Source: Trichormus sp. ATA11-4-KO1
GTDB lineage: Bacteria > Cyanobacteriota > Cyanobacteriia > Cyanobacteriales > Nostocaceae
Length of the DNA: 64,000 nt
Reading direction: 5' to 3'
Assembly: GCA_019358915.1 (NCBI GenBank)
Contig: JAHHIM010000009.1
Coordinates: 64,001 to 128,000 of the forward strand
The translations under genes and the position numbers were made by a program. How positions within the stretch are numbered: the stretch's first letter is position 1; each line of letters starts with the position of its first letter. The notes under the pieces were generated by a model. That model had not been told where the DNA came from. It did no database searches and saw only the letters and a list, made by a program, of their open reading frames with translations. Below are positions 5,016 to 45,828 of this stretch, one piece after another.

Positions 5016-6863
5016 CTAAGCAATGCTGCTGTTGACAGTTAAATTGACATTAGCTTGTGTTTGAGCTTGCCAAGACTGGGCATAAAGTCCGCCCAAAGCT
5101 AGTAATTCGTGATGACTTCCTGACTCTACAATTTGTCCAGCTTGCATGACATGAATGATATCAGCACGCATTGCTAAGGTAAAACGGTGGGTGATGACTA
5201 CAGCAGAACGATTTTTGGCCATCCGGCGAAATCTATCTAACCAGTCATGTTCAGCCCAAGAATCCATGAAGCTGGTTGGTTCATCTAGTATGAGAATCGG
5301 TGCTTGCCGTAAAAAAGCTCTAGCTAAGGCAATACGCTGCCATTCACCTCCACTCAAATCAGTCCCGCCAGAAAACATTTTTCCTAGCTGTGTATCGTAA
5401 CCCTGCGGTAGCCTAGCCACAATTTCTTCAGCACCAGCATCTTGAATAGCCGCCTGAATTTCCTCAAAGCTGGGTTTTGAATACACATCACTAATGGCAA
5501 TGTTTTCTGCTACCGTTTTTTGATAAGTAGCGGGAAACTGAAACATAACTGTGAGTAGACGACGGAGTTCGCTAAGGGAAAACTTTTTAATATCAATTCC
5601 ATCTAATTCAATACTGCCGGATTCAGGGTCATAAAAACGGCACAAAAGTTTAATCAACGTACTTTTGCCAGTACCGTTTTCTCCAACAATAGCCACAATC
5701 TTGCCAGCAGGGATGGTGAGATTAAAATCTTGCAGAATCGCCCGATCACTGCCAGGATAGCGAAAGGTGACTTGGCGTAAGCAAATTCCTTGTTTTAAGG
5801 GTAAGGAAATGGGTAAGGGATGAGGAGGATCTTGAATTTGTGGTTTTAATTGGAGAAATTCAAAGAGATTACCCAAAAACAAGCTATTGCTGTAGATTTG
5901 ACCAATGTTTGACAGTACAGAACGCATTAAACTTTGGCCACTATTAAAAGCCTGGTAAAATAAAGCCAGGTCTCCTAAGGTCAAAAATCCTTGTAATGCT
6001 CGCCACAGCATCCACACCATCGCACCACCAGCAATCAACAAAGCCGAGATACCTCCAGCCAACTGAGTGTAACTTTGTTCACCAGTTAATTTGATGGTCT
6101 CGGTACGCAGGCGATCGCGTATGGCCTGATAAGATAATTGAAAATAATCACCCAATTCAAATAACCGCAGTTCTGCTGCTGTATACACCTGAGTGATCAA
6201 AAAATCATAGTATTCTGCCCGGCGGCGTTGTGATGTCGTCTTTTCCCACCAACGATGATAATAGCGATTGAAGCGAACTACCATGTAGAGTGCAGGGATT
6301 GAACTAGCAACCAGCACCAGAGGCAACCAGACTCCATAGGGTAGCAAAATAGCCACCATTGTCAGCAGAGTGATGCTATTCTGCAATAGACTGCCAGTAC
6401 TTTCCAAAAGAGCAAGAGAATGACCACTAGCATTACTTCGTGCTTGATGTAAGCGATCGTGGTATTCCGGTAATTCGTAGAAGGATAAATCAGCTGCAAT
6501 AGATTTTTCGTGTACTAAGGCTGTAATACTATCTAGTACGAGTTCAGACTGAACTTTGCGGATGAAACCGAGAGCTGCATTTGCTAGCTGTGTCAGCAAT
6601 AAAACCGCCGCCATTAAACCTGCTGGTAACAGTACTATTTTCCAACTTTCTTCACTAATACCAGCCCTCATGGCAACTACTAAACTGTCTACTAGCAGTT
6701 TGGATAGATATACATTTGCCCCTGGTAGTAACCCCTGAACTAACAGCAAGACTAACCAAGCCACAGTCCACACAGGCGCTGTTACCCAAATCAAATGCAA
6801 AGTCTGCATGATATGGGATGACTGGGCTAGAGAATTACGTAACTTGCTCATCAGATTTGTCAT
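5016..6863 (-). CDS. ABC exporter (permease plus ATPase) of the lasso peptide cluster
   Basis: Walker A GENGTGKS, LSGGEWQR signature, ILDEPT; last gene of the cluster. Confidence 0.92.
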   Translation of the reverse strand: MTNLMSKLRNSLAQSSHIMQTLHLIWVTAPVWTVAWLVLLLVQGLLPGANVYLSKLLVDSLVVAMRAGISEESWKIVLLPAGLMAAVLLLTQLANAALGFIRKVQSELVLDSITALVHEKSIAADLSFYELPEYHDRLHQARSNASGHSLALLESTGSLLQNSITLLTMVAILLPYGVWLPLVLVASSIPALYMVVRFNRYYHRWWEKTTSQRRRAEYYDFLITQVYTAAELRLFELGDYFQLSYQAIRDRLRTETIKLTGEQSYTQLAGGISALLIAGGAMVWMLWRALQGFLTLGDLALFYQAFNSGQSLMRSVLSNIGQIYSNSLFLGNLFEFLQLKPQIQDPPHPLPISLPLKQGICLRQVTFRYPGSDRAILQDFNLTIPAGKIVAIVGENGTGKSTLIKLLCRFYDPESGSIELDGIDIKKFSLSELRRLLTVMFQFPATYQKTVAENIAISDVYSKPSFEEIQAAIQDAGAEEIVARLPQGYDTQLGKMFSGGTDLSGGEWQRIALARAFLRQAPILILDEPTSFMDSWAEHDWLDRFRRMAKNRSAVVITHRFTLAMRADIIHVMQAGQIVESGSHHELLALGGLYAQSWQAQTQANVNLTVNSSIA

Positions 6864-6881
6864 GGGTGTGAAACGACTTGC

Positions 6882-7799
6882 TTAAGCTATGGATGGTTGG
6901 CGGTTACCAATCAGGTGTGCTTCTACCATTTCGGCTAAAGTAGGTAGCGATCGCAAATCATTAGACCGAATCAAACGGTAGCTAGGTATGTTTTTGGCAA
7001 TATGGGTGCATTGCAGGAATTGAGCTGTGTTGTGAATCTGATACCATCGGGTAGGCAGTGAGTTACGCATCAGTTCAATTAAACTTTCAGGCGATCGCAG
7101 TTGCTTAATTCCCACAGTTGAGTCTTTAGTCAACATATAAATTCGCTTGAGTGGTAAGGCCGTTTGAGAAAAGTTTTCTGCTACCCGGAAACCACCTTTT
7201 TTTAATTCAGTGTGCAATAACAATAAATTAGATTTATCATGACCTAAAAATTCTGCCACTTCGGGAAACAATTTAAACTGCGGATAACCAGGAAATACAG
7301 TAATTGTCTCTGTTTCTGTGCTAATTGCCACAACATCATCTGTAATAATGCGATGCCCCTTGGCATGAAGAGCTGCGGCTATGGTAGACTTGCCCCAGCC
7401 TGACTTACCGACAAAAGCAATAGCACTACCATCAAACTCTACGGCACTCCCATGCAGTACAAATAAGCCTCGTTGATAAAGCAAAATTGACATGACAGTG
7501 CCAACGATGTAGAGGCTAATGAGTCTTTGATCATCCTTTAAAGGAGTAACAATAATTTCGCATCCATCACGAATCACAAACAAAGCGGCATTTTTATCAA
7601 AAAGAATCGCTTCTTCTAGAGTCATTTTTGTGCAGCAATTATGATTGCCCATCACTTCATCTGGAATAGTAGCGTTTCTATCCCAGCGAATTGTGATGTC
7701 ACCAGGTAATTGTGCAGGTAGAAATTCCAGTAACTCTATTTCAGATTTTATAGATAGACCGTAGGCGAAGTATGAAAACATATTTTTTAAATCGGACAA
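6882..7799 (-). CDS. HPr kinase-like peptide kinase (paeninodin PadeK-like)
   Basis: LHGSAV, P-loop GKSGWGKST, TDD motif; lasso cluster context. Confidence 0.85.
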   Translation of the reverse strand: MSDLKNMFSYFAYGLSIKSEIELLEFLPAQLPGDITIRWDRNATIPDEVMGNHNCCTKMTLEEAILFDKNAALFVIRDGCEIIVTPLKDDQRLISLYIVGTVMSILLYQRGLFVLHGSAVEFDGSAIAFVGKSGWGKSTIAAALHAKGHRIITDDVVAISTETETITVFPGYPQFKLFPEVAEFLGHDKSNLLLLHTELKKGGFRVAENFSQTALPLKRIYMLTKDSTVGIKQLRSPESLIELMRNSLPTRWYQIHNTAQFLQCTHIAKNIPSYRLIRSNDLRSLPTLAEMVEAHLIGNRQPSIA

Positions 7800-7906
7800 T
7801 TCACATTTATTAACTATTAAGAATTTTCAATTTAGCTAGGGTTGAGTAGACAAAATTATTAAGTCTATTGAATCAATAAACTTATTTTTTGACCTCAACC
7901 CTGAGC

Positions 7907-8085
7907 TATAGCAGTTGACAATTGAATGCCATACATTTTTAGCTTTTGCGAATGCCTCTCTTACAAGCTAAAGAGAGGGCTTGTTACCCCTTCATTAATA
8001 GGGAACTTGGGTTTTCCATAAATACATAGTCTATATTTAGGGAAATTTTGGAGAGATGTATTTTATTCAATTGAAAACCACTATA
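7907..8085. mobile_element. MITE-like element with about 21-bp imperfect terminal inverted repeats
   Basis: TATAGCAGTTGACAATTGAAT at the left end versus the reverse complement of the right end, TATAGTGGTTTTCAATTGAAT; no ORF inside. Confidence 0.65.
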
Positions 8086-8145
8086 TCTGTTAGCACATGT
8101 AACCAGCGTCAATCGAAACAATTACTACTGGCTATTGCTAATGCA

Positions 8146-8328
8146 TTAACTAAGTTGAGTTACTGCACCGCCTCCAGGATTACTGATATTAATGCTAGAA
8201 CCATCAGGATTAATAAAAGTAATAGAATCACCAGTTCCTGGAGCTTTTGTGAATGTTTGCTCAGTGATGTCTTCTACAGAACCGTAGAGATTTAACGCGG
8301 GTTTAGACCAGGATTTTTGAGTTTGCAT
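8146..8328 (-). CDS. Lasso peptide precursor
   Basis: Leader WSKPALNLYGSVEDIT matches (Y/W)xxPxLxxxGxxxxxT; RBS AGGAG; C-terminal Ser; lies between cyclase and kinase. Confidence 0.9.
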   Translation of the reverse strand: MQTQKSWSKPALNLYGSVEDITEQTFTKAPGTGDSITFINPDGSSINISNPGGGAVTQLS

Positions 8329-8457
8329 TTTGGTTTCTCCTGAGAGTGTTTTGAATGATTAATTAGTAGGAAAACCTACATAATTAGTATTGCTGAAAAT
8401 CCCAAGTTCTTCTATGCATAAGCAACAACTTTATCTAATCTTTAACGAACTCTATAG

Positions 8458-10344
8458 TTATAAAAAAGTTGTGTTTTGCAACCAAATTGCTAAGTTAATT
8501 GCTGTGTAAACTGTCATAGCATCTTGTTCGTGCATAGGGTTAGATAAATAGCGATAATAGGTAGCACGTAATGCTGCAATATCGACATACTTTTCAATAA
8601 TTTCAGGTTGCTTAATAATTATTTCGTCTAAAACTTTCTGTTCAAATTCCAGAAGCTTAGGTTTAAAACTAGCACCTAAATTGGCTTTAGAAATTCTTGT
8701 TTGTAATTCAGGTGGTAAAATTCCTGCCATAGCACGACGCGCAATTAGCCGAGTCCATCCAGAGGAACATTTTTGTTCAGGAGGTATAGCTAAACAAAAT
8801 TCCATCAACCTGCGATCGCAGAAGGGAAACGCCAAAGAAACAGCAAAAGCACTAGATAATTTATCAGCTATTTCTAGCCCATATTGAATTAAGCCAGAGT
8901 TAATACTATGCCAATGTATTTCTCTAGCTGTCACAGGTATATCAATACTTTTTTGCTGTTCCTCAAAATATGCTGATAAATTTATTTGTTTGGCAAATGC
9001 AGGATTAATTGCTTTGTCAGCCCAGATAGGTTTATCAACTATTCGCCCAATAAATTCAGGTATTAAAGGTTGCAATCCCCATCGCCAAATTACTTGCATC
9101 CAAGACTGGTGAAATCTGGATGCGTAAGCTTTAGTTTCTTTCAAAAACCTCTTAAACTTGAATGTCCGGATTAAATCTGTGAGATAGTACTGACCATGAG
9201 AAATAGTCGTATCACCATCTATGCCATCTAAGACAATACGAACATTATTTTCTCGGACTTTTTGATAAATTATCCAATTGAGGTATAGATTAGGGGCACA
9301 GAAACCTTCATCCATATGCCAAAAAATTTTGTCATGCTCTGTTAAAGGACTAATCCCATCCGCCTCAATATAGTGAGGTATAATCCCCTCTTGAGCTACA
9401 ACTAAGTCAACATAAAATCGTTCATCAATCAGCCGTAAGTATTCTGCTTGTAAGTTGGGAAATATAGCAGAAAAAGAGTGTAATTTTTCATGCTTCTGTT
9501 GCGTCAGGATATCACGAGCAACACAGGTAATTGAGGAAGAATCTAGCCCCCCGCTCAACATTGAGCCTCCAGGAAAGGCGCTGCGTAGTCGGCAACTTAC
9601 CGCTTTAGTAAAAATTTCCCGATAGGCTTCGGCATACTCTTGATTTGAACTTAATCGCAGTTCTTGTGATGGATCTAACGACCAATAACGCCGGGTTTGC
9701 TTAGTTTCATAACCAACAATCAGACTATGGGCTGCTGGAAGTCGGAGAATATTTTCATAAAAGGTAATCTCCCGGTCTTCAAACACTCTAGATAAGTATT
9801 GTCCTACTCTGAGTTCATTGAGTCGGCGAGGTACTTCTGGTAAGCACAGCAGAGCTTTAATTTCGGAAGCGAAGGCAAAAATCTGGCTCGAACGATAGTA
9901 GTAAAAAGGTTTGATACCCATTGGATCTCTGGCGCAGAAAAGTATCTGTCGGCGCTGATCCCAAATGACAAAGGCAAAATCGCCCAATAGCTTTTCCGGG
10001 CAATGTTCTCCCCATTTTTCATAGGCAGATAAAATGAGTTGACTATCGGTGATTTTTGCCGATGGTTGCTCGTTCAACTGCAATGCACAAATGAGTTCAT
10101 CCCGATTATCAATGCGAGCATCGGCTGTAATAACTAAATTCCCTGTGTGATTAACTAAAGGCAACTTTTCTAACAGAGATTCGGGAGTTGTCCACAGCAT
10201 CCTGTGTCCCATTCCCACAGACTCCTCCGTCCATATGTCTGCACCATCAGAACCACGATGAGCTAAAACCTCAGCCATCTTTCCCAAAGTAGCTGAGTCT
10301 ATTTGCTGTCCGTCTAGATAGTAAACTCCAAAAATTGCGCTCAC
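8458..10344 (-). CDS. Lasso peptide cyclase (asparagine synthetase-like C protein)
   Basis: LSGGLDSS ATP-binding motif; AsnB-like fold lacking the N-terminal catalytic Cys (starts SAIFG). Confidence 0.93.
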   Translation of the reverse strand: MSAIFGVYYLDGQQIDSATLGKMAEVLAHRGSDGADIWTEESVGMGHRMLWTTPESLLEKLPLVNHTGNLVITADARIDNRDELICALQLNEQPSAKITDSQLILSAYEKWGEHCPEKLLGDFAFVIWDQRRQILFCARDPMGIKPFYYYRSSQIFAFASEIKALLCLPEVPRRLNELRVGQYLSRVFEDREITFYENILRLPAAHSLIVGYETKQTRRYWSLDPSQELRLSSNQEYAEAYREIFTKAVSCRLRSAFPGGSMLSGGLDSSSITCVARDILTQQKHEKLHSFSAIFPNLQAEYLRLIDERFYVDLVVAQEGIIPHYIEADGISPLTEHDKIFWHMDEGFCAPNLYLNWIIYQKVRENNVRIVLDGIDGDTTISHGQYYLTDLIRTFKFKRFLKETKAYASRFHQSWMQVIWRWGLQPLIPEFIGRIVDKPIWADKAINPAFAKQINLSAYFEEQQKSIDIPVTAREIHWHSINSGLIQYGLEIADKLSSAFAVSLAFPFCDRRLMEFCLAIPPEQKCSSGWTRLIARRAMAGILPPELQTRISKANLGASFKPKLLEFEQKVLDEIIIKQPEIIEKYVDIAALRATYYRYLSNPMHEQDAMTVYTAINLAIWLQNTTFL

Positions 10345-37797: not shown

Positions 37798-37919
37798 GAT
37801 TTTGATAGTTAGCTATACAACCTAGATTCCGCAGGCAAGTGATGAGATTAATAGTATTTTTGACGAATGACACTATAAGTATCAGAAATAAGAGTACAAG
37901 ATATTGAGCAAATAATTAC

Positions 37920-37959
37920 TAATTCGTAATTCGTAATTCGTAATTCGTAATTCGTAATT
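37920..37959. repeat. STRR-type heptamer tandem repeat (TAATTCG)x5.7
   Basis: Read directly from the sequence. Confidence 0.9.
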
Positions 37960-38238
37960 AAAGAGGGTACAAGCCCCCACTGATTGTAACTACGTACAGC
38001 CTGGCGGCATCTGTAGGCTCTATTATCAATTACGAATTATGTTGACCACTGTGGGATAGTGGCAGGTATCATAGACCAGATGTGTTTGGTAGAGCAACAC
38101 AAGAATATACTGACTCCAGTTCCAGGCTCCTCAATCAGCGATCGCCATTAAAGAATTAAGAAAATTATCAGGCAGTGACGACAATGGCGCTAAACTCTTA
38201 TGACGAATCAGCCCTTAGAGTCAACTTGATAGCTTCTG

Positions 38239-38559
38239 ATGAAATTAGCCGATATCCTCAAAGACTCAAATTACAAGCTGTCGCAGTTTACGATCGCTGA
38301 AATTGAGCAGTTAGAGCAAACAATTACCCTCAAGGCAACCAAAAACGGTGAGGTTCCTTATACGGTTTGTTTGGTGCGCCAAAAAGCAATTAAGCTCACG
38401 CCAGAGGAGTCAATCCGGCAATTATATTTACGAGTTTTGCGCGATCGCTTGCACTATCCCCTCAGTCGCATTCAGGTTGAGTATGGGGTGAATTTTGGGC
38501 GCGAGGTGAAACGGGCAGACATCGTGGTCATGGATAAAGACCGTCCCAACACAGTTTAT
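38239..38559 (+). pseudogene. Truncated HsdR-N-like / N-6 methyltransferase restriction-modification gene
   Basis: TPEESIRQLYL...IQVEYGVNFGREVKRADIVV; the frame is cut by an IS end at about 38560. Confidence 0.8.
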
Positions 38560-38825
38560 AGAACCCATTTGACATCTAAGAAGAGGCTGCAAGCCTCTGA
38601 ACCATTAGCCGAATAAAACAAAGATTAACTTTGGCGGTCGCATTAGCTAAAGTTCGCTCAAAGTTCTTGACGAGAATTTTGCATCTCTCCATCCAAGCAT
38701 TTGACCGTTCAATCACCCACCTGGCTGCAACCGGAACAAACCCAGATAGTCGTCAAGCGAGATGCCTGCTTTGGAGACTGTTTCACTCGTTTGAGAACTT
38801 GTTTTCCCCCTTCTCGTTCACCCAT
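38560..38825 (-). mobile_element. IS5-family transposase remnant
   Basis: Minus strand reads GFVPVAARWVIERSNAWMERCKILVKNFERTLANATAKVNLCFIRLMVQRLAASS*, followed by the end sequence AGATGTCAAATGGGTTCT. Confidence 0.8.
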
Positions 38826-38829
38826 ACTG

Positions 38830-39512
38830 GCAGATGTGACCCTGACCCGGCTGAATATTACCAGCCAAAACAGCAAAAAGTTATGACAATCATGCGTCAG
38901 TCTGGTCTTTGTATTGGCAATGTTGTCTCACTTGCAAAGCGCAAATTTCAGCCTGATAAACAAGGCACTTTTAATTACATTGAAATTGGGAATCTCAACG
39001 GAGAAGGCTTTGCTAATAGTGAAGTAGTAGCAATGGAAGAAGTCCCCAGTCGAGCGCAGTGGATTGTCAAAACTAACGATGTAATTACGTCAACCGTTCG
39101 CCCCATTCGCCGACTCTCAGCCCTGATTGAACCAGAGCAAAACAATTACATTTGTTCATCTGGTTTTGCTGTTCTCAAACCAACCAAAATAGAGCCAGAA
39201 GTTTTACAAGTTTATTTGCGATCGCCCATTGTATGCGAAATCCTTGATCTTCATACAACTGCCAGTATGTATCCGGCAATTTCCACTGAAGACTTGTTAA
39301 ATATTCCGATCACGTTGCCGAAAGAATCTACTCGCCAGAAAATCACAGAAAAGGTCAGAGCATCTCGCAAAGCGCGGGAGCAATCTAAACAACTGCTAGA
39401 AATTGCTAAAACTGGAGTAGAACGGGCAATTGAGACTGATGAAGCCGCAGCCACAACTTGGATGAACCAGCAACTTGAAGCATTAGGCATCACCCTAACT
39501 GCTACCACTTAA
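38830..39512 (+). pseudogene. hsdS: C-terminal half of an HsdS-like specificity subunit
   Basis: AEYYQPK, FNYIEIGNL, PSRAQWIV..NDVITSTVRP, CSSGFAVL, MYPAIS; the N-terminus is replaced by the IS remnant. Confidence 0.8.
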
Positions 39513-39529
39513 ACCATCTGGGAGTAATC

Positions 39530-39772
39530 ATGAAAGCACTTAAAGTTATGGCAACGATTAACGATCAGGGACAACTAACTTTAGATTATCCGCTTTTAAC
39601 TGATAAAAATAGCCGAGTAGAAGTCATTGTGCTAATCCCTGAAGTAGAAGAAGTTCTGGATGATTCATCTCAAGCAGAAGTCTTAGCAGATTTCCAGCAA
39701 GCTTGGCACGAAGCCATGACTGGGCAAACTATCCCGGTGGCTCAACTTTGGGAAGGTCTTGAAGATGGTTGA
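39530..39772 (+). CDS. Putative type II antitoxin (partner toxin absent)
   Basis: 80-aa acidic protein ending QQAWHEAMTGQTIPVAQLWEGL; an overlapping ATG at 39765 runs into repeat copy 2 after four codons. Confidence 0.6.
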   Translation: MKALKVMATINDQGQLTLDYPLLTDKNSRVEVIVLIPEVEEVLDDSSQAEVLADFQQAWHEAMTGQTIPVAQLWEGLEDG

Positions 39773-39865
39773 TCAGCTGAAGCCACAGCAACAACTTGGA
39801 TAAACCAGCAAGTTGAAGCTATTAGCATTAATTTATCAAATTAAACTTAATTTAATGGAGGCATA

Positions 39866-40075
39866 ATGTCTGAAATTACTTTAAACCCAGAACAACTCAA
39901 GGAAATCTTGAAAAGCGCGATCGTCGAATTGATTCGTGATAACCGTGAGGAAGTCTCTGAATTTTTGACGGAAATTATTGAAGACATAGCAATGGAACGG
40001 GCGATCGCAGAAGGTGAAACAACTGACCTGATTAGCCGCGACTCCATTTTTCAACTTTTGGAGCCGAAATCGTGA
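39866..40075 (+). CDS. Putative antitoxin upstream of RelE
   Basis: 69-aa acidic protein (IEDIAMERAIAEG); GTGA overlap with the toxin. Confidence 0.7.
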   Translation: MSEITLNPEQLKEILKSAIVELIRDNREEVSEFLTEIIEDIAMERAIAEGETTDLISRDSIFQLLEPKS

Positions 40076-40338
40076 AAGTCGAGTTCAGAAAAAGCTTTGA
40101 AAAGGATTTGGGTAAGATTTAAGATGAGGACTTGCTCCTGAGAATTAAAACTGTAATAGAAGAAATGGAAACTGCTGAAAGTCTCTTGAAGATCAGCAAC
40201 ATCAAAAAACTTAAGGCAGATGGAAATTACTACCGTATCCGAGTTGGTGACTATCGAATTGGTTTTGCCGAAGACGAAAATATAATTACCTTTGTTCGTG
40301 TATTACATCGCAAGGAAATATATCGATATTTTCCATAA
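40072..40338 (+). pseudogene. RelE/ParE toxin with a premature stop
   Basis: GTG-KVEFRKSFEKDLGKI-TAA(40120-40122)-DEDLLLR...YRIRVGDYRIG..VLHRKEIYRYFP in one frame. Confidence 0.85.
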
Positions 40339-40455
40339 TGAATAACTACTGCTAGAAATTGCTAAAACACAAGTAGAACAGGCGATAGAGACTGATGAAG
40401 CGATCGCCACAACTTGGATAAATCAGCAACTTGAAGTCTTGGGGGTAACGCTGAC

Positions 40456-41037
40456 ATGATGATGCAGGCTGAAGCAAAGAAAATCTATACACCCGAAGAG
40501 TATCTCGATTTTGAGGTGAATTCAGATATTCGGCATGAGTATATCAATGGAGAAATCATCCCTATGACTGGCGGCACTCCCGAACATAATGAAATTGCCA
40601 GTATTCTCAATGCCGCCTTAAGAGTCAGTTTGAAAGGGAAACCGTACAGTATTTTTGTAGCGGATCAACGGCTTTGGATTCCCAATCGCACGCTTTATAC
40701 CTACCCGGATGTCATGGTTGTCCCCCGCCCACTTGAACGACAACAGGGACGAACTGATACAATTACTAACCCGGTGATGATCGCCGAAGTGCTTTCAAAA
40801 TCAACCAAAAGCTACGATAGAGATGAAAAATTTTCAGCGTATCGTACCATTCCAACATTTCAAGAGTATTTATTGATTGATCAATATACTGCTCATGTTG
40901 AGCAATACTCCAAAGCTGACTCCCATAGATGGATCTTTACTGAATATGACGATACAGAATCTTATATTTCACTCTCATCGATTCCCTTTGAAATTCGTTT
41001 AGCAGATATCTATGAAAATATTGAATTTGAGCCATAG
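40456..41037 (+). CDS. Uma2 family endonuclease-like protein
   Basis: HEYINGEIIPMTGG, YPDVMV, AEVLSKST, QEYLLIDQ. Confidence 0.92.
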   Translation: MMMQAEAKKIYTPEEYLDFEVNSDIRHEYINGEIIPMTGGTPEHNEIASILNAALRVSLKGKPYSIFVADQRLWIPNRTLYTYPDVMVVPRPLERQQGRTDTITNPVMIAEVLSKSTKSYDRDEKFSAYRTIPTFQEYLLIDQYTAHVEQYSKADSHRWIFTEYDDTESYISLSSIPFEIRLADIYENIEFEP

Positions 41038-41142
41038 TGGAAATTGCTAAACCACAAGTAGAACGGGCGATAGAGACTGATGAAGATAAGGCAACCACTT
41101 GGATAAATCAACAGCTTAAAGCATTAAATGTTGAAATAAGAG

Positions 41143-41403
41143 ATGAAAGAAATTCGCTTTAGCGATCATGCTCAATTAAAAATGGAGGTTTTAGCGAGTC
41201 ATGAAATAAGCGTCGATCCCAACTTTGTAATAGAGACAGTGCGATCGCCAGACAAGCTAGAAACTGGTGAAGTGGATAAACTGATTGCACAAAAGCGTTT
41301 AGACGAAAATTTAGTGCTTCGAGTCGTTTACCGAGAATTCAATGCTTTCATTTTGATCGTCACCCTTTATCCTGGCAGGAGGTCTAGATATGAAAAAGAT
41401 TAG
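41143..41403 (+). CDS. DUF4258-like RelE-fold toxin
   Basis: IRFSDHAQ...LRVVYRE...IVTLYP; overlaps a DUF2283-like gene. Confidence 0.75.
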   Translation: MKEIRFSDHAQLKMEVLASHEISVDPNFVIETVRSPDKLETGEVDKLIAQKRLDENLVLRVVYREFNAFILIVTLYPGRRSRYEKD

Positions 41404-41584
41404 CTACAGCAAAGATGTTGATGCTCTATTAATTGAACTTTCCAATGAGCCAATTGCCTATGCTGAAGATGAAGGACAAGTGATTTTGCATTATTCTCAA
41501 GATGCCAAGCTAGTTTTAGTTGAAATACTAGACTTTCGACGCTTGATGTCAAATGAAACTGTGACTGCATTGTTAGCCTCCTGA
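41390..41584 (+). CDS. DUF2283-like antitoxin
   Basis: KISYSKDVDALLIEL...LVLVEILD. Confidence 0.8.
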   Translation: MKKISYSKDVDALLIELSNEPIAYAEDEGQVILHYSQDAKLVLVEILDFRRLMSNETVTALLAS

Positions 41585-41686
41585 GAAAATTGCAAAAATA
41601 GGAGTAGAACAGGCGATAGAGACTGATGAAGCGACAGCCACAACTGGGATAAACCAACAACTAAAAGCCTTTGAGGTAGAAATGCC

Positions 41687-41983
41687 ATGAAGATTACTGC
41701 AATAGATTTGCCAATGGATCAGATTCGTGAGTTTTGTTACAAGTGGCAAGTTACCGAATTTGCCTTGTTCGGCTCCATTTTACGCGATGACTTTCGCCCC
41801 GAAAGCGATATTGATGTGCTGCTCACCTTTTCTGCAACTGCGAAACGGGGCTTAAGCGAAACTCTGCAAATGCGCGATCAATTGCAAGCTATTTTCAACC
41901 GCCCTGTAGATTTGATTGTAAAAACCGCGATCAAGCGCAGTGAAAACTGGCTCAGACGTAAAAATATTTTGAATCCGCACTAG
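41687..41983 (+). CDS. Minimal nucleotidyltransferase (MNT antitoxin), with a probable 1-nt frameshift at the extreme 3' end
   Basis: LFGSILRDDFRPESDIDVL; the expected tail ESALVIYAA* lies in another frame. Confidence 0.85.
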   Translation: MKITAIDLPMDQIREFCYKWQVTEFALFGSILRDDFRPESDIDVLLTFSATAKRGLSETLQMRDQLQAIFNRPVDLIVKTAIKRSENWLRRKNILNPH

Positions 41984-41989
41984 TCATCT

Positions 41990-42062
41990 ATGCCGCGTGA
42001 CCAAGAATCTCTGATCGACATCGCCAATGCCATCAGGCGCAGCTTACGCTATGCAGATGGGG
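41990..42062 (+). pseudogene. Truncated HEPN (DUF86) toxin
   Basis: MPRDQESLIDIANAIRRSLRYADG, then breaks into a CTTTGCGC repeat element ending CAGCAACGCCAAAA. Confidence 0.75.
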
Positions 42063-42221
42063 TTTTTTCTTTGTACCTTTGCGCCTTTGCGCCTTTGCGC
42101 GAGATAAATTCATATTTTCAATCAGCAACGCCAAAAATTGTTGGGTGGGATGTTTGCTTTAAGTTTTTCAGAAAATAATTGTATATCAAAGATTGAGTAA
42201 GAAATTGAGCCACTGGACTAC

Positions 42222-42467
42222 CTAAATTTCCACCAAAGAGCGAACACTTAAAATTTCATGATTTCGCAGTGGTTTAATATCAGATATGGGAACAATGACA
42301 ACAGCTATTGATTCACCAGTTGCATTGAATACTTCTAAAACACATCCTTGTTCACCATTACTAGGATGAGGAACAAAATCAATTAAAGTTGCTACATCAC
42401 CTTTTTTTAATTGATATTCATCTAAGTCACGATTTAAAGCGACACGCTGATATAGTTCAAAGTTCAT
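42222..42467 (-). CDS. DUF4926-like small protein
   Basis: FELYQRVALNRDL..LKKGDVATLID..GCVLEVFNATGESIAV; start overlaps the upstream gene. Confidence 0.75.
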   Translation of the reverse strand: MNFELYQRVALNRDLDEYQLKKGDVATLIDFVPHPSNGEQGCVLEVFNATGESIAVVIVPISDIKPLRNHEILSVRSLVEI

Positions 42468-42798
42468 TTGCAGACTCCTTGTTAGGTTTGAGGGTGATAA
42501 ACTGAAACTTACCGTCAACAGCCCTTTGCAGCCAAACTGTAATCACTGCTAGGTTTCGCTGGTTTACCCCGATTAATTCACCAGTAACGCGATAGAACAC
42601 CCCATATTCATTATCTCTATCTTGTATTGCTTCTGTTGAATCTGCCAGTTGCCGAATTGCTACTTTCAATAGTTCTGGGTTGTCTTGTGTAAATCCAGCT
42701 TGGGCGAGAAACTTTGATTGATCGTCTTGTTCTCTCGGTACTAATAAGTAGCGGGTGATTTTTTCGTCGGCAATAATTGCATCAGGGGGAATTTTCAT
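42457..42798 (-). CDS. DUF6883-like putative toxin paired with the DUF4926-like gene
   Basis: AIIADEKITRYLL..SKFLAQAGFT..VITVW..FITLKP. Confidence 0.7.
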   Translation of the reverse strand: MKIPPDAIIADEKITRYLLVPREQDDQSKFLAQAGFTQDNPELLKVAIRQLADSTEAIQDRDNEYGVFYRVTGELIGVNQRNLAVITVWLQRAVDGKFQFITLKPNKESANEL

Positions 42799-42844: not shown

Positions 42845-43480
42845 TTAAGTTAAGTCTCTTCTAATACGAGATAGTGCCTGTTGTAAACCTTCAGAGTGAA
42901 TCCAACCAACAAAACCGCCGTAAATCATTCTGTCATTGCGATCGCCTAAAAAAACATGGTCAACACCAACGGGGTTTTTCCATGTTCTCACTACAGTTCC
43001 ATCCCTCAGCCTCATGATGGGATGAGAACTTACAAAATCTCTGTGGTGTGCGCGAGTCATTCCAGGAACACTTTCTAAAATGGCGATCGCTTCATTTGCA
43101 TCATCTGTGGTACTAGAATTAACCACCGTTGCACAACCGCATCCGTCCGTTACAGTCGTCTTGAGCCTATCTTTCATGTCGCCGTCGAATAGCGATAAAG
43201 ACTCAATCTCTTCTAGCAATTTGCCATGTGGTTCAGTCTGTCGGCGCTGGCAGTAAATTTCTGTCAGAAAATCTTCTAAACTAACTTTAGCTAAAGCATC
43301 AGTAATCAAACCTGTCAGCCCCAAAACAGCAATTCCACCCAGCATCCCCGCAGGGCCACCCAGAAATGCTAAAGCTGCGGTAATAGCAGCAGCACCTGTA
43401 AAACCTGTAGTTGCCATTGTGATTACCAAAATTACCCCAGGCAGACCCAATGCAGCTACTTTTTTGACGACTTCATCCAT
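42845..43480 (-). CDS. Hypothetical protein with a glycine-zipper membrane segment
   Basis: MDEVVKKVAALGLPG...GGPAGMLGGIAVLG; ATG 43480 with AGGA upstream. Confidence 0.65.
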   Translation of the reverse strand: MDEVVKKVAALGLPGVILVITMATTGFTGAAAITAALAFLGGPAGMLGGIAVLGLTGLITDALAKVSLEDFLTEIYCQRRQTEPHGKLLEEIESLSLFDGDMKDRLKTTVTDGCGCATVVNSSTTDDANEAIAILESVPGMTRAHHRDFVSSHPIMRLRDGTVVRTWKNPVGVDHVFLGDRNDRMIYGGFVGWIHSEGLQQALSRIRRDLT

Positions 43481-43511
43481 TTCCTGCCACCTCAAGACAA
43501 GATTTACTCTG

Positions 43512-43640
43512 ATGGTAGGGGTCACGCCAGTAGGAATACCATGCACCCATACCCATAATCTCGAACAGTCCATTTTGAATCTTGATGTAAATCCGTGGAA
43601 TTAGACGCTGTTTTTGCTTTCGTGAAAGTTTCGTCAGTCA
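43512..43640 (-). pseudogene. N-terminal fragment of an inward-rectifier (KirBac-like) K+ channel gene
   Basis: KQKQRLIPRIYIKIQNGLFEIMGMGAWYSYWRDPYH, then abrupt loss of similarity; recognised from memory of the family. Confidence 0.5.
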
Positions 43641-43947: not shown

Positions 43948-45114
43948 ATGGGTCGTGTAGGCGTCTTATTACTCAATCTCGGTGGGCCTGATAAGTTAGA
44001 GGATGTTGGGCCGTTTTTGTATAACCTATTTTCCGATCCGGAAATTATTCGCCTACCATTTCGCTGGTTGCAAAAACCCCTAGCCTGGTTTATTGCCTCA
44101 CGGCGAACCAGAACATCTCAAGAAAACTATAAGCAAATCGGCGGCGGTTCCCCTCTACGGCGGATAACAGAAGCTCAAGGGGAAGCACTGAAACAACAAT
44201 TGGGTGATCTGGGACAAGAAGCCAATATCTACGTGGGAATGCGTTATTGGCATCCTTATACCGAAGAGGCGATCGCTCAGATTAGTCAAGACAACATTGA
44301 GCGTTTGGTAATTCTACCACTGTACCCGCAATTCTCCATTAGTACGAGTGGTTCTAGCTTCCGGCTGTTAGAAAAACTTTGGCAAGAAAACCCAAAACTT
44401 CAGCCCATTGAATACACTGTTATTCCCTCCTGGTACAAACAACCAGGTTACCTCCAGGCAATGGCTGAACTGATAGCCCAAGAACTGGAACAATTTCCCA
44501 ATCCCGATGAGGTTCATATCTTTTTCAGCGCCCACGGCGTTCCCAAAAGCTATGTTGAAGAAGCAGGTGATCCCTACCAGCAAGAAATTGAGGAATGTAC
44601 TGCTTTAATTATGCAGACCCTCAATCGACCCAATCTCCATACCTTGGCTTACCAAAGCCGTGTGGGACCAGTAGAATGGCTCCAACCCTATACTGAAGAT
44701 GCGCTCAAAGAACTAGGCGGACAAGGTGTCAAAGATTTAGTCGTCGTGCCTATCAGTTTTGTCTCAGAACATATCGAGACACTACAAGAAATTGATATTG
44801 AGTATCGGGAAATAGCCGAAGAATCAGGAATTCACAACTTCCGTCGCGCACCTGCTCCCAACACTCACCCGGTATTTATTCAAGCACTGGCAGACCTCGT
44901 GATTGATGCGCTAAAAAAACCCAGTTTCCAGCTTTCGCAAGCTGCCCAAATGAAAAAAAGGGTGAAAATGTACCCCCAAGAGAATTGGGAATGGGGTATG
45001 ACTACTAGTGCCGAAGTTTGGAATGGTCGTATTGCTATGCTGGGCTTCATTGCCTTAATCATTGAGCTAGTTACTGGTCATGGTTTACTGCACATGATTG
45101 GCTTGTTGCATTAA
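43948..45114 (+). CDS. hemH: Ferrochelatase with C-terminal CAB domain
   Basis: [37 protein letters not shown]. Confidence 0.98.
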
Positions 45115-45270: not shown

Positions 45271-45828
45271 ATGACTCAACTAAAACCTCAACTCACACTA
45301 CAAGAATTCCTCGCCCTACCATCCGGGGATATTACCTACGAATTAGTTGACGGCGAAGCAAAAGCAAAAATGGCACCAAAAAGATTCCATTCCAGATTAA
45401 CCCTTGCTATTAGTCAACTTCTCATACTATGGGCACAAAATCGTGGTGAGATTGGTATCGAATGGGCAGTTACTTTAAAACGCCAAGGTCGCGATTGGGT
45501 TCCCGTACCAGACTTACTTTATATTTCCTATTCTCGCCTTTCTAATGAAGTAATTGAGGATGAAGCTTGTCCCATACCTCCAGACTTAGCCATTGAAATT
45601 ATCTCACCCGACCAAACCTTTGGACAAATGAGCGCCAAAGCCACAGATTACCTCGATGCTGGTGTGATGAGAGTTTGGGTTGTGGATGCAAGAGCTAAAA
45701 CAGTCACGATTTTTTATCCTGATACCAGACCTCAAACAAAAACTGGTGTAGATAGTTTAGAAGATTCTCTATTTGAAGGGTTGCAAATTACACCACAACA
45801 AATTTTTCAACAAGCGGGAATTCCTTAG
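45271..45828 (+). CDS. Uma2 family endonuclease-like protein
   Basis: YELVDGEA, PVPDLLYIS, PDLAIEIISP, GVMRVWVVD. Confidence 0.92.
   Translation: MTQLKPQLTLQEFLALPSGDITYELVDGEAKAKMAPKRFHSRLTLAISQLLILWAQNRGEIGIEWAVTLKRQGRDWVPVPDLLYISYSRLSNEVIEDEACPIPPDLAIEIISPDQTFGQMSAKATDYLDAGVMRVWVVDARAKTVTIFYPDTRPQTKTGVDSLEDSLFEGLQITPQQIFQQAGIP

Follow-up and report, generated by a model that had tools for sequence, protein, structure and literature searches.

The locus described here raises the question of how toxin–antitoxin (TA) and nuclease genes can be stacked in one orientation, separated by copies of a protein-coding gene end, with no integrase beside them. It lies in the cyanobacterium Trichormus sp. 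ATA11-4-KO1 on contig JAHHIM010000009.1 (C9 below) of assembly GCA_019358915.1, within a stretch of 64,000 nt (contig positions 64,001 to 128,000) that we call the window and to which plain coordinates refer. The final codons of a gene with restriction–modification (R-M) specificity domains, hereafter the anchor, recur between the small genes that follow it; we call the copies tails and the genes between them cargo. We put the probability at roughly two in three that this is an integrase-free cassette array built by homologous recombination within the duplicated gene end.

Repeat analysis recovered one family (D1) of four 112-nt tail copies starting at 39388, 40344, 41029 and 41575, the last three sharing 81%, 68% and 70% identity with the first; a second family (D2) includes a fifth, partial copy at 39778-39828 (84% identity). 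The copies and their translated peptides match the first-pass annotation of this DNA, which had described five copies of an hsdS-like 3′ end, each starting about 0-8 nt from the previous stop; we measured 4, 6-8, 1-3 and 3 nt past the stops at 39772, 40338, 41037 and 41584. Its further statement that the full copies share one left edge has to be relaxed, since the edges agree within about 12 nt, not at a single base, and are cargo-specific. All tails lie on the plus strand. Repeat-family analysis delimits tail 0 (39388..39512), the anchor's own coding end, in which the exchange zone discussed below occupies 39405-39475 (positions 30-100 of our tail model). Tail 1 (39776..39850) consists of the right half alone, the left half having been lost along with a toxin gene. 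Tail 2 (40344..40458) combines a left edge of the RelE-preceded type with a right end of the Uma2B-followed type, and tails 3 and 4 lie at 41038..41140 and 41587..41690.

Searches of the whole 5.97-Mb genome with blastn and nhmmer returned five tail matches (E 2e-31 to 3.5e-8), all at this locus, and no sixth copy (next-best E 0.13). Because the matches are confined to five copies at one place, the tail is neither a chance resemblance nor a miniature inverted-repeat transposable element, a dispersed identity that had been raised beforehand and is now ruled out. The central conserved region of the anchor holds no internal DNA copy of the tail (best E 0.62). Contigs assembled from sequencing run X1 tile 38017-42093 with zero differences and an even depth of 1046-1214, so the array is not an assembly collapse; an artefact of this kind is ruled out by a run that is possibly the source data of the assembly, and hence not independent of it. 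No joint alternative to the window order was found within the array among the assembled X1 contigs.

The anchor itself is the 3′ remnant of a fused HsdR_N, N6-methylase and S gene (R-M-S), and not the stand-alone hsdS gene named at first pass. In relatives it is a single gene of about 1170-1200 aa with HsdR N-terminal, N6-methylase and specificity domains, as in the intact 1183-aa copy of locus L005, where HSDR_N_2, N6_Mtase and Methylase_S lie in one chain; this domain content predicts a type IIG-like, single-chain R-M-S enzyme. Anchor frames of at least 1050 aa occur in 29 of the 71 loci with enough upstream sequence, and the window's copy is broken. Its 5′ remnant (38239..38616, plus strand; Pfam HSDR_N_2, E 2.7e-12) is 92% identical in DNA to the start of the L005 gene as far as 38560. 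A transposase fragment on the minus strand (38561..38849; tblastx matches to transposase-like frames on contigs C1 and C4), which has no Pfam or NCBIfam match and which we take to be IS5-like, then stands in for about 2.6 kb of the gene, comprising the methylase and the first specificity domain; the L005 alignment skips here from 6032 to 8609. The 3′ remnant (38850..39512, plus strand; Pfam Methylase_S, E 3.3e-5), 92% identical to L005, retains the second target recognition domain (TRD; class 'TRDa') and the C-terminal tail. Across the phylum, a survey found the anchor in 6 of 151 genomes at E 1e-100.

Related loci were gathered with the S-domain protein (22 loci), with tail DNA in 61 relatives (11 genomes matched) and with a degenerate tail pattern (at least 127 stretches). 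From the 159 sequences we removed 28 duplicates and the tailless L013 (Acidobacteriota). The remaining 130, of which 97 exceed 1.5 kb, are cyanobacterial by record title apart from two 'uncultured bacterium' entries. Locus counts are not natural frequencies, because the sample was selected through the tail and short loci may cut arrays, and some cargo labels were assigned by eye. Among the 97 loci, 58 carry one tail and 39 carry 2-6, and all tails lie on one strand across loci. The 130 loci contain 194 tails, and behind 139 of these lies one of 11 recurring cargos: two Uma2 types, RelB-RelE, RelN-RelE, two types of minimal nucleotidyltransferase (MNT) with HEPN, a DUF2283 pair, HicB-HicA, two antitoxin-PIN pairs and a DUF2281 gene.

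The array is subject to turnover: number, order and content of cassettes vary between relatives, as the first-pass annotation had anticipated in proposing mobile cassettes bounded by tail copies, and no fixed gene order emerged. Seven cargo pairs occur in both orders, 37 distinct cargo-to-cargo adjacencies were counted, and joints in runs X2, X5 and X12, which come from other organisms at 88% likeness, give further examples of other orders. The cleanest comparison is a genome of the same genus (G001) whose flanks are 97% and 96% identical to the window. Its order is RelB-RelE, RelN-RelE, Uma2B, MNT, while that of the window is RelN, RelB-RelE, Uma2B, DUF2283 pair, MNT. The two genomes share RelB-RelE and Uma2B units at 95% identity. 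The RelN unit of the window, in contrast, matches that of G001 at 84% and that of L019 at 95%; a foreign variant has therefore come in at the first tail. The DUF2283 cassette is missing at the same tail in G001; differences of this kind mean that cassettes have also been gained or lost at internal tails. Strict entry at the first position, pushing older tails downstream, had been proposed at first pass and is not supported in view of these internal changes. Nor is there a gradient of decay from such entry: tail identity to the model is flat with rank (0.837, 0.833, 0.839 and 0.845 for ranks 1-4; 0.854 for first tails), and the last tail is the more diverged in just 6 of 10 arrays.

Specificity domains show a different distribution. 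First tails are preceded by ten TRD classes plus singletons, and none of the ten classes lies ahead of any later tail; classes a, b and c are paired with 5, 6 and 4 different first cargos. The anchor also occurs in many chromosomal contexts. At least two tails follow 10 of the 29 intact anchors and 17 of the 42 that are broken or split, a comparison made over the 71 loci with 3.7 kb of upstream sequence.

To locate the exchanges we placed the tails on a 110-nt model (position 1 = window 39376). Across genera, the left edge of a tail is set by the preceding cargo and the right edge by the following one. Left edges lie at about -22 behind PIN cargos, 13-17 behind RelE, 19-25 behind Uma2B and DUF2283 and 25-30 behind Uma2A, those of the commonest cargos clustering at 13-30; cargo stops fall mostly at -36 to +25, and a remnant of the TRD end, at most about 20-30 nt, persists in a few junctions. 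For a linkage test we chose a Nostoc-type set by hand, corrected 13 labels manually and left out 16 of its 76 full tails as belonging to rare classes, so that 60 were compared. Positions 13-26 track the upstream unit (identity 0.88 versus a background of 0.60), positions 46-70 track neither neighbour (0.79-0.85 in all classes), positions 71-80 and 91-100 lean weakly downstream, and positions 101-125 track the downstream unit (0.82-0.83 versus 0.53-0.74). The mobile unit is therefore a right tail, a cargo and a left tail, exchanged inside the core.

A three-way comparison was possible for the 56 of 166 full tails for which a left and a right parent could be named, a left parent being at least 92% identical over the upstream 200 nt but having a different downstream unit. 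The proportion of informative sites that agree with the left parent declines along the tail, from 0.84 (27-38) through 0.51, 0.42, 0.50, 0.36 and 0.32 to 0.12 (99-110). Clean breakpoint intervals are disjoint: 26-28 (L090.1), 40-48 (L062.1) and 77-92 (W.2, tail 2 of the window, with 0 of 9 sites discordant); tail 3 gave an interval of 73-76, with 2 of 21 discordant. Over 53 cases and 543 sites, the number of discordant sites was 105 with free breakpoints and 206 with the best fixed point (40). Fixed-point simulations with equal noise gave a mean of 141 and a minimum of 119, none of 300 reaching 105, and shuffling the site order within cases reached 105 in 4 of 300, figures that are not strict probabilities because the comparisons share parents and are not independent. 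As judged from these alignments, exchanges are spread over about 70 bp and one fixed crossover point is rejected, contrary to the fixed left junction of the first-pass annotation.

The frames of later tails are often broken (22 of 51, versus 2 of 84 first tails), and the third-position bias of 0.26 versus 0.11-0.12 is kept in non-coding as in coding tails, as expected if frame-broken tails are refreshed from coding ones.

We propose the following course of events. A cassette would be born in a rare illegitimate event, once per cargo type per anchor, that duplicates the last ~80-130 bp of the gene and would thereby fix the cargo's own left and right junctions, which are directly visible. Its unit would be [right part of tail]-cargo-[left part of tail]. 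Such tail-cargo-tail units could then be inserted, looped out, reordered and swapped by RecA-type crossover in the shared ~70-bp core. One route may be a circle released between two tails; another may be transforming DNA, with the anchor gene as left arm and a tail as right arm. Both comEC and dprA are present in the genome as long open frames. The anchor retains a working C-terminus because each entry brings a new tail; that an incoming first cassette rebuilds this end had been suggested at first pass, and the last few residues indeed change with the first cassette. The tail is also the conserved arm just behind the variable TRD, so that swaps of specificity and of cargo, whose mixing is observed, may share one hot spot, and the extra traffic at the R-M-S anchor may come from the tail doubling as right arm for specificity-domain swaps. 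Because cargos bring little DNA upstream of their genes, and some begin at the stop codon of the tail, they are probably carried on the anchor transcript, with expression by read-through. Addiction may help the TA pairs persist, and an array outlasts its anchor and then decays, as it has in the window.

Half of the right-truncated tails (7 of 14) end within about 10 nt of CGATCG, the highly iterated palindrome HIP1 (L019:14227-14290, L026, L075, L095, L065, L101 and L141, the L019 and L026 truncations being one shared event). As CGATCG is present in 65 of 173 full tails, this is only a hint that HIP1 may aid the forming of new junctions.

Several points weigh against homologous recombination. 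About 70 bp at about 85% identity is short for RecA, so the exchange rate may be low. No circle or recombination event was observed in the assembled contigs, and the birth of cassettes with a stop within about 40 nt of the tail is not accounted for by homologous recombination. Seventeen cargo pairs occur in one order only, most of them known from 1-3 loci. The breakpoint comparisons share parents and are not independent, and even when breakpoints are left free, 105 of the 543 sites disagree. The best single breakpoint (40) lies inside the most conserved block, near the site proposed at first pass, and three tails (L007.0, L081.0 and L030.1) fit it; a hot spot near position 40, blurred by later gene conversion, is possible. 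The genome, finally, encodes 18 tyrosine recombinases over the cut-off, and a frame on C5 (123505-124155), only 225 aa and covering model positions 97-313, scores above the TIGR02249 cut-off for integron integrases, so a trans-acting enzyme is available. Further integron-integrase-like fragments were seen on C25 and C37.

These last points are what sustains the main rival, a site-specific recombinase encoded in trans that would act at the conserved block (model ~27-45) in the manner of integrons or islands, with its crossover blurred by gene conversion; the clustering of the commonest left edges at 13-30 also speaks for it. We nevertheless regard it as unlikely. None of the 300 fixed-point simulations came down to the discordance obtained with free breakpoints, and the edges range from -22 to +30 according to cargo. 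The absence of an integrase in cis, noted at first pass, was confirmed, with no tyrosine recombinase on C9. Among the 97 related loci (1.1 Mb) one tyrosine recombinase was found, where about 3 would be expected at the genome density of 18 per 5.97 Mb, and a single-query search for serine recombinases found none near the array in the 97 loci; the co-occurring recombinase that the first-pass annotation had suggested looking for was thus not detected at these loci, apart from that single case. The tyrosine-recombinase hidden Markov model was built from this genome's 18 enzymes, so distant enzymes may escape it, and transposases were not systematically searched. No conserved neighbours were found beside anchor and cargo beyond a locus-specific subset. 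The 51 later tails do not fold like attC (mean z -0.08 for the top and -0.07 for the bottom strand; below -2 in 5 of 51 and 3 of 51), and the integron core motifs RYYYAAC and GTTRRRY are present in 6 and 9 of 173 tails. Moreover, unrelated gene ends serve as anchors, which one site-specific enzyme would not explain.

Those other anchors emerged from a scan of the 2634 frames of at least 250 aa in this genome, in which a non-coding copy of the last 110 nt was sought up to 6 kb downstream. Fifteen frames have such a copy, compared with 1 for tail upstream, 3 for head upstream, 1 for head downstream, 2 for middle downstream and 0 for middle upstream in the controls. Seven of the 15 duplications enclose TA modules: those of the R-M-S locus, thrS (C10:88041-88661), acnB (aconitase B; C36:505675-506752, L162), a branched-chain ABC ATPase gene with three tails and two HicAB pairs (C11:81885-83341), and tetrapyrrole methylase, HEAT-repeat and DUF2887 genes (C24:47400-48130, C5:137260-137900 and C18:960-2050, respectively), the DUF2887 case being possibly a paralogue remnant. 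The remaining eight include transposase, simple-repeat and larger duplications. Among relatives, nine acnB loci with multiple matches were selected out of 121 genomes, and 8 of them carry 2-3 tail copies (Nostocaceae; L224-L229, L237 and L238), with XisH/XisI, RelE, HicAB-like, PIN and DUF559 genes in varied order. Many of these copies include the hairpin behind the gene, and one acnB cargo has an identical left junction in three genomes. Of six thrS loci, likewise chosen for multiple matches and annotated by eye, two enclose TA pairs, two a DUF2887-like gene and two other genes. The tail-cassette design is not specific to R-M genes. The view that the platform is special to an R-M gene must accordingly be given up, as the same design stands behind thrS, acnB and four other genes here and broken anchors are equally array-rich. 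In the same genome, the last 110+ nt of a Clp ATPase gene recur with 100% identity 2.3 kb downstream (C65:227400-229860, L271), enclosing a 356-aa gene of unknown function and a DUF6972 gene; this is probably a very recent insertion with long target duplication.

Insertion of that kind is the basis of a second and still less probable rival, in which every tail records a separate insertion event of this type, made by break repair and perhaps started by an R-M nuclease, and cassettes are never re-used. PMC2853133 documents such a process for R-M genes, one instance, of 88 bp, being from Microcystis. It fits the birth of cassettes: an antitoxin-PIN family is present at both acnB and the R-M-S gene with homology (82%) confined to the cargo frames, and must therefore have been captured separately at each anchor, at least twice in all. 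As an account of the whole array it is contradicted by the constancy of both junctions of a given cargo across many genomes, array ranks and positions in the chromosome, because each insertion would make new junctions. Arrays also stand behind non-nuclease genes and dead anchors.

Very little can be said for descent from a single long array with a fixed order, from which cassettes popped out by deletion between tails, without gain or reordering. Deletions are real (cassette 1 of the window; internal deletions also in L017 and L065) and 17 pairs are known in a single order, but the 7 pairs in both orders, an order that differs at the same locus within a genus, the foreign variant of one cassette in first place and the many chromosomal contexts of the anchor all speak against it; the order conflicts refute it, unless the assemblies concerned are wrong. 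Equally remote is the idea that tails are kept as regulatory parts (promoter or translational coupler) with recombination as a side effect: Uma2 and MNT starts do lie on or next to the tail stop and an in-frame start codon is often made after Uma2 cargos, but the frames of 22 of 51 later tails are broken and no promoter-like site was found on the plus strand within a tail, and such sites do not exceed chance (7 versus 10.3 in shuffles).

Two observations concern those junctions. At Uma2A junctions the tail start often becomes an in-frame ATG (L001, L005, L016, L017 and L062), and Uma2B junctions give a GTG overlapping the stop; start codons at Uma2 junctions could yield a short coupling peptide. 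L017 also has a damaged tail that forms an in-frame fusion with the Uma2 gene after it.

In the window, five cassettes follow the anchor on the plus strand. Cassette 1 holds a RelN-family antitoxin (39530..39772; NCBIfam NF050107, 109.5 bits, above cut-off), whose RelE-family partner, found in relatives (PF06296 in L060), has been deleted; the deletion, which took the toxin and the left half of the next tail, is visible against L019 and L103. Cassette 2 encodes a RelB-like antitoxin (39866-40075; PF25734) and a RelE/ParE toxin (40072-40338; PF05016) whose translation meets an in-frame stop at codon 17. Cassette 3 is an open Uma2 frame of type 'Uma2B', a putative endonuclease (40456..41037; PF05685, E 1.9e-35) and PADLOC candidate PDC-S03. 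Cassette 4 pairs an 86-aa DUF4258-like gene (41143-41403) with a DUF2283 gene (41390-41584; PF10049), both frames being open; the first had no Pfam or NCBIfam match to DUF4258, the name coming from an ESM Atlas lead in which 11-33% of nearest-cluster members carry that domain. Cassette 5 (41687..42064) comprises an MNT gene (41687-41983; PF01909) and a HEPN gene that begins at 41990 and is cut after ~25 codons. It is 89% identical in DNA to the MNT-HEPN cassette of L019 up to 42064, and a related gene in L006 is HepT-like; the HEPN assignment rests on this DNA alignment, since BLASTP of the window remnant against one L019 frame, which represents a different piece of the gene, gave no match. 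Three TA pairs of the window have thus lost their toxin or retain it in broken form. Of the cargo names given at first pass, antitoxin, RelE, Uma2, DUF2283 and MNT stand, with the qualifications that the RelE frame contains a stop, HEPN is cut and DUF4258 lacks a family match.

A dispersed short repeat (42065..42140) truncates the right end of the array and with it the HEPN gene; it has 49 blastn matches in the genome and reaches a depth above 14,000 in run X1. Directly behind the array, on the opposite strand, lie a DUF6883 and DUF4926 pair (42222-42798) and a 242-aa gene of unknown function (42845-43573), a region to which G001 has no similarity. A second Uma2 gene (45271-45828, by Pfam) sits directly behind a presumably ferrochelatase-like gene (43948-45114). 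Upstream of the anchor are short tandem heptamer repeats of the filamentous-cyanobacterium type (37913-37961), with 135 blastn matches in the genome. At one recurring locus among the relatives (L003, L004, L018, L094 and L101), a GIY-YIG nuclease and a 68-aa gene often follow the first cargo, with no detectable tail between that cargo and the pair; the 462-aa gene downstream of it we take to be tRNA-synthetase-like.

These findings bear on a problem left open by Makarova et al. in 2009, who, in the accessible part of their paper (PMC2701414), described mixed-class TA 'islands' beyond tandem duplication and cassettes of Uma2 paralogues in cyanobacteria without giving a mechanism. The accessible parts of PMC8262939 and PMC13756078 do not describe such arrays, and the open-licence PubMed Central and bioRxiv literature, supplements aside, yielded no description of cyanobacterial TA cassettes added in series and reshuffled on duplicated coding ends. 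The locus offers a testable mechanism for mixed TA islands, in which duplicated coding ends would act as short homology arms and no integrase is needed; arrays of this form would be missed by integron and mobile-element finders. It would also tie changes of R-M specificity and of cargo to a single spot of ~70 bp, in a phylum to which bloom-formers belong. Chlorogloeopsis fritschii PCC 6912 has the array (L016) and, according to the accessible part of PMC9429965, has been reported as naturally competent, which makes the mechanism directly testable. A wider proposal, rather doubtful at present, is a general integrase-free cassette economy in cyanobacteria, with compact TA and nuclease modules captured almost from start to stop codon at the 3′ ends of many unrelated genes, spread between genera by transformation and coupled, at the R-M-S gene, to TRD swapping. 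Capture would duplicate the gene end and so make of each such gene a docking site resembling that of an integron. If true, it would account for the mixed-class islands and Uma2 clusters of Makarova et al., and with its own capture machinery or signal (e.g. HIP1-directed joining) it would be a distinct class of gene-cassette system.

Known systems resemble the array in part. Integrons, and clusters of attC sites lacking an integrase (CALIN), hold compact, largely promoter-poor cassettes of one or two genes that are rich in TA pairs. The array shares these traits, together with their single-orientation stacking and variable order and content. An integron or CALIN identity does not fit, as the repeat here is host-gene coding sequence and there is no adjoining IntI, attC, fixed crossover or decay with rank. 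In hsdS shufflons and phase-variable loci of Type I systems, a variable TRD is exchanged at conserved flanks. Here there are no silent TRD cassettes, inverted copies or linked recombinase, and such a shufflon is ruled out by TRD classes preceding first tails only. Against PADLOC/NCBIfam profiles of the methylation-associated defence system (MADS), the anchor scores 309 bits for MAD2 (cut-off 720) and 138 bits for MAD5 (cut-off 400), both below threshold.

Three further systems come closer. In rhs C-terminal displacement, the accessible part of Jackson et al. 2009 (PMC2935791) describes fragment arrays behind an intact gene and proposes homologous recombination via circles. As there, anchor fragments of variable length lie in an array made mosaic by homologous exchange, without a dedicated integrase, and exchange is limited to one clade, so far as that account goes. 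In rhs, as described there, the homology lies ahead of a variable tip, and what is displaced as cargo is the toxin end of the gene itself, whereas here the homology is the extreme 3′ end behind a variable domain. The anchor protein is preserved, the cargos are separate small genes, housekeeping genes also serve as anchors, and no spare specificity domain lies ahead of later tails. Insertion with long target duplication (Furuta, Abe and Kobayashi 2010, PMC2853133) involves, in the part of the article accessible, variable repeats of tens to hundreds of bp and no mobility gene, mostly in naturally competent species with one Microcystis case, together with allelic TRDs in type IIG genes. The array has likewise a direct repeat of more than 30 bp that is unique elsewhere in the genome, an insert of less than 20 kb with no mobility gene, single-tail relatives (58 of 97) and a cassette missing at one tail in G001 (cassette 4). 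There, however, the R-M system is the insert and events are single, as far as the accessible text describes them, while here the R-M-S gene is the target and TA/Uma2 inserts are serial, re-used and reordered; the accessible main text contains neither 'toxin' nor 'tandem'. Additive flexible genomic islands at tRNA 3′ ends, as portrayed in the accessible parts of PMC5217437 and PMC7771536, gain and lose cassettes by site-directed recombination, and every cassette leaves behind a directly repeated copy of the 3′ part of its target gene, as here; the targets of our arrays are protein-coding genes and not tRNA genes, the cassettes are 0.3-1 kb and the crossovers are dispersed. The array departs in a defining feature from rhs displacement, long target duplication, additive islands and integrons alike. 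By analogy, it appears to work like rhs displacement, to arise like long target duplication and to end in an outcome like that of additive islands and integrons, and each of its ingredients has a precedent in rhs displacement, long target duplication or additive islands.

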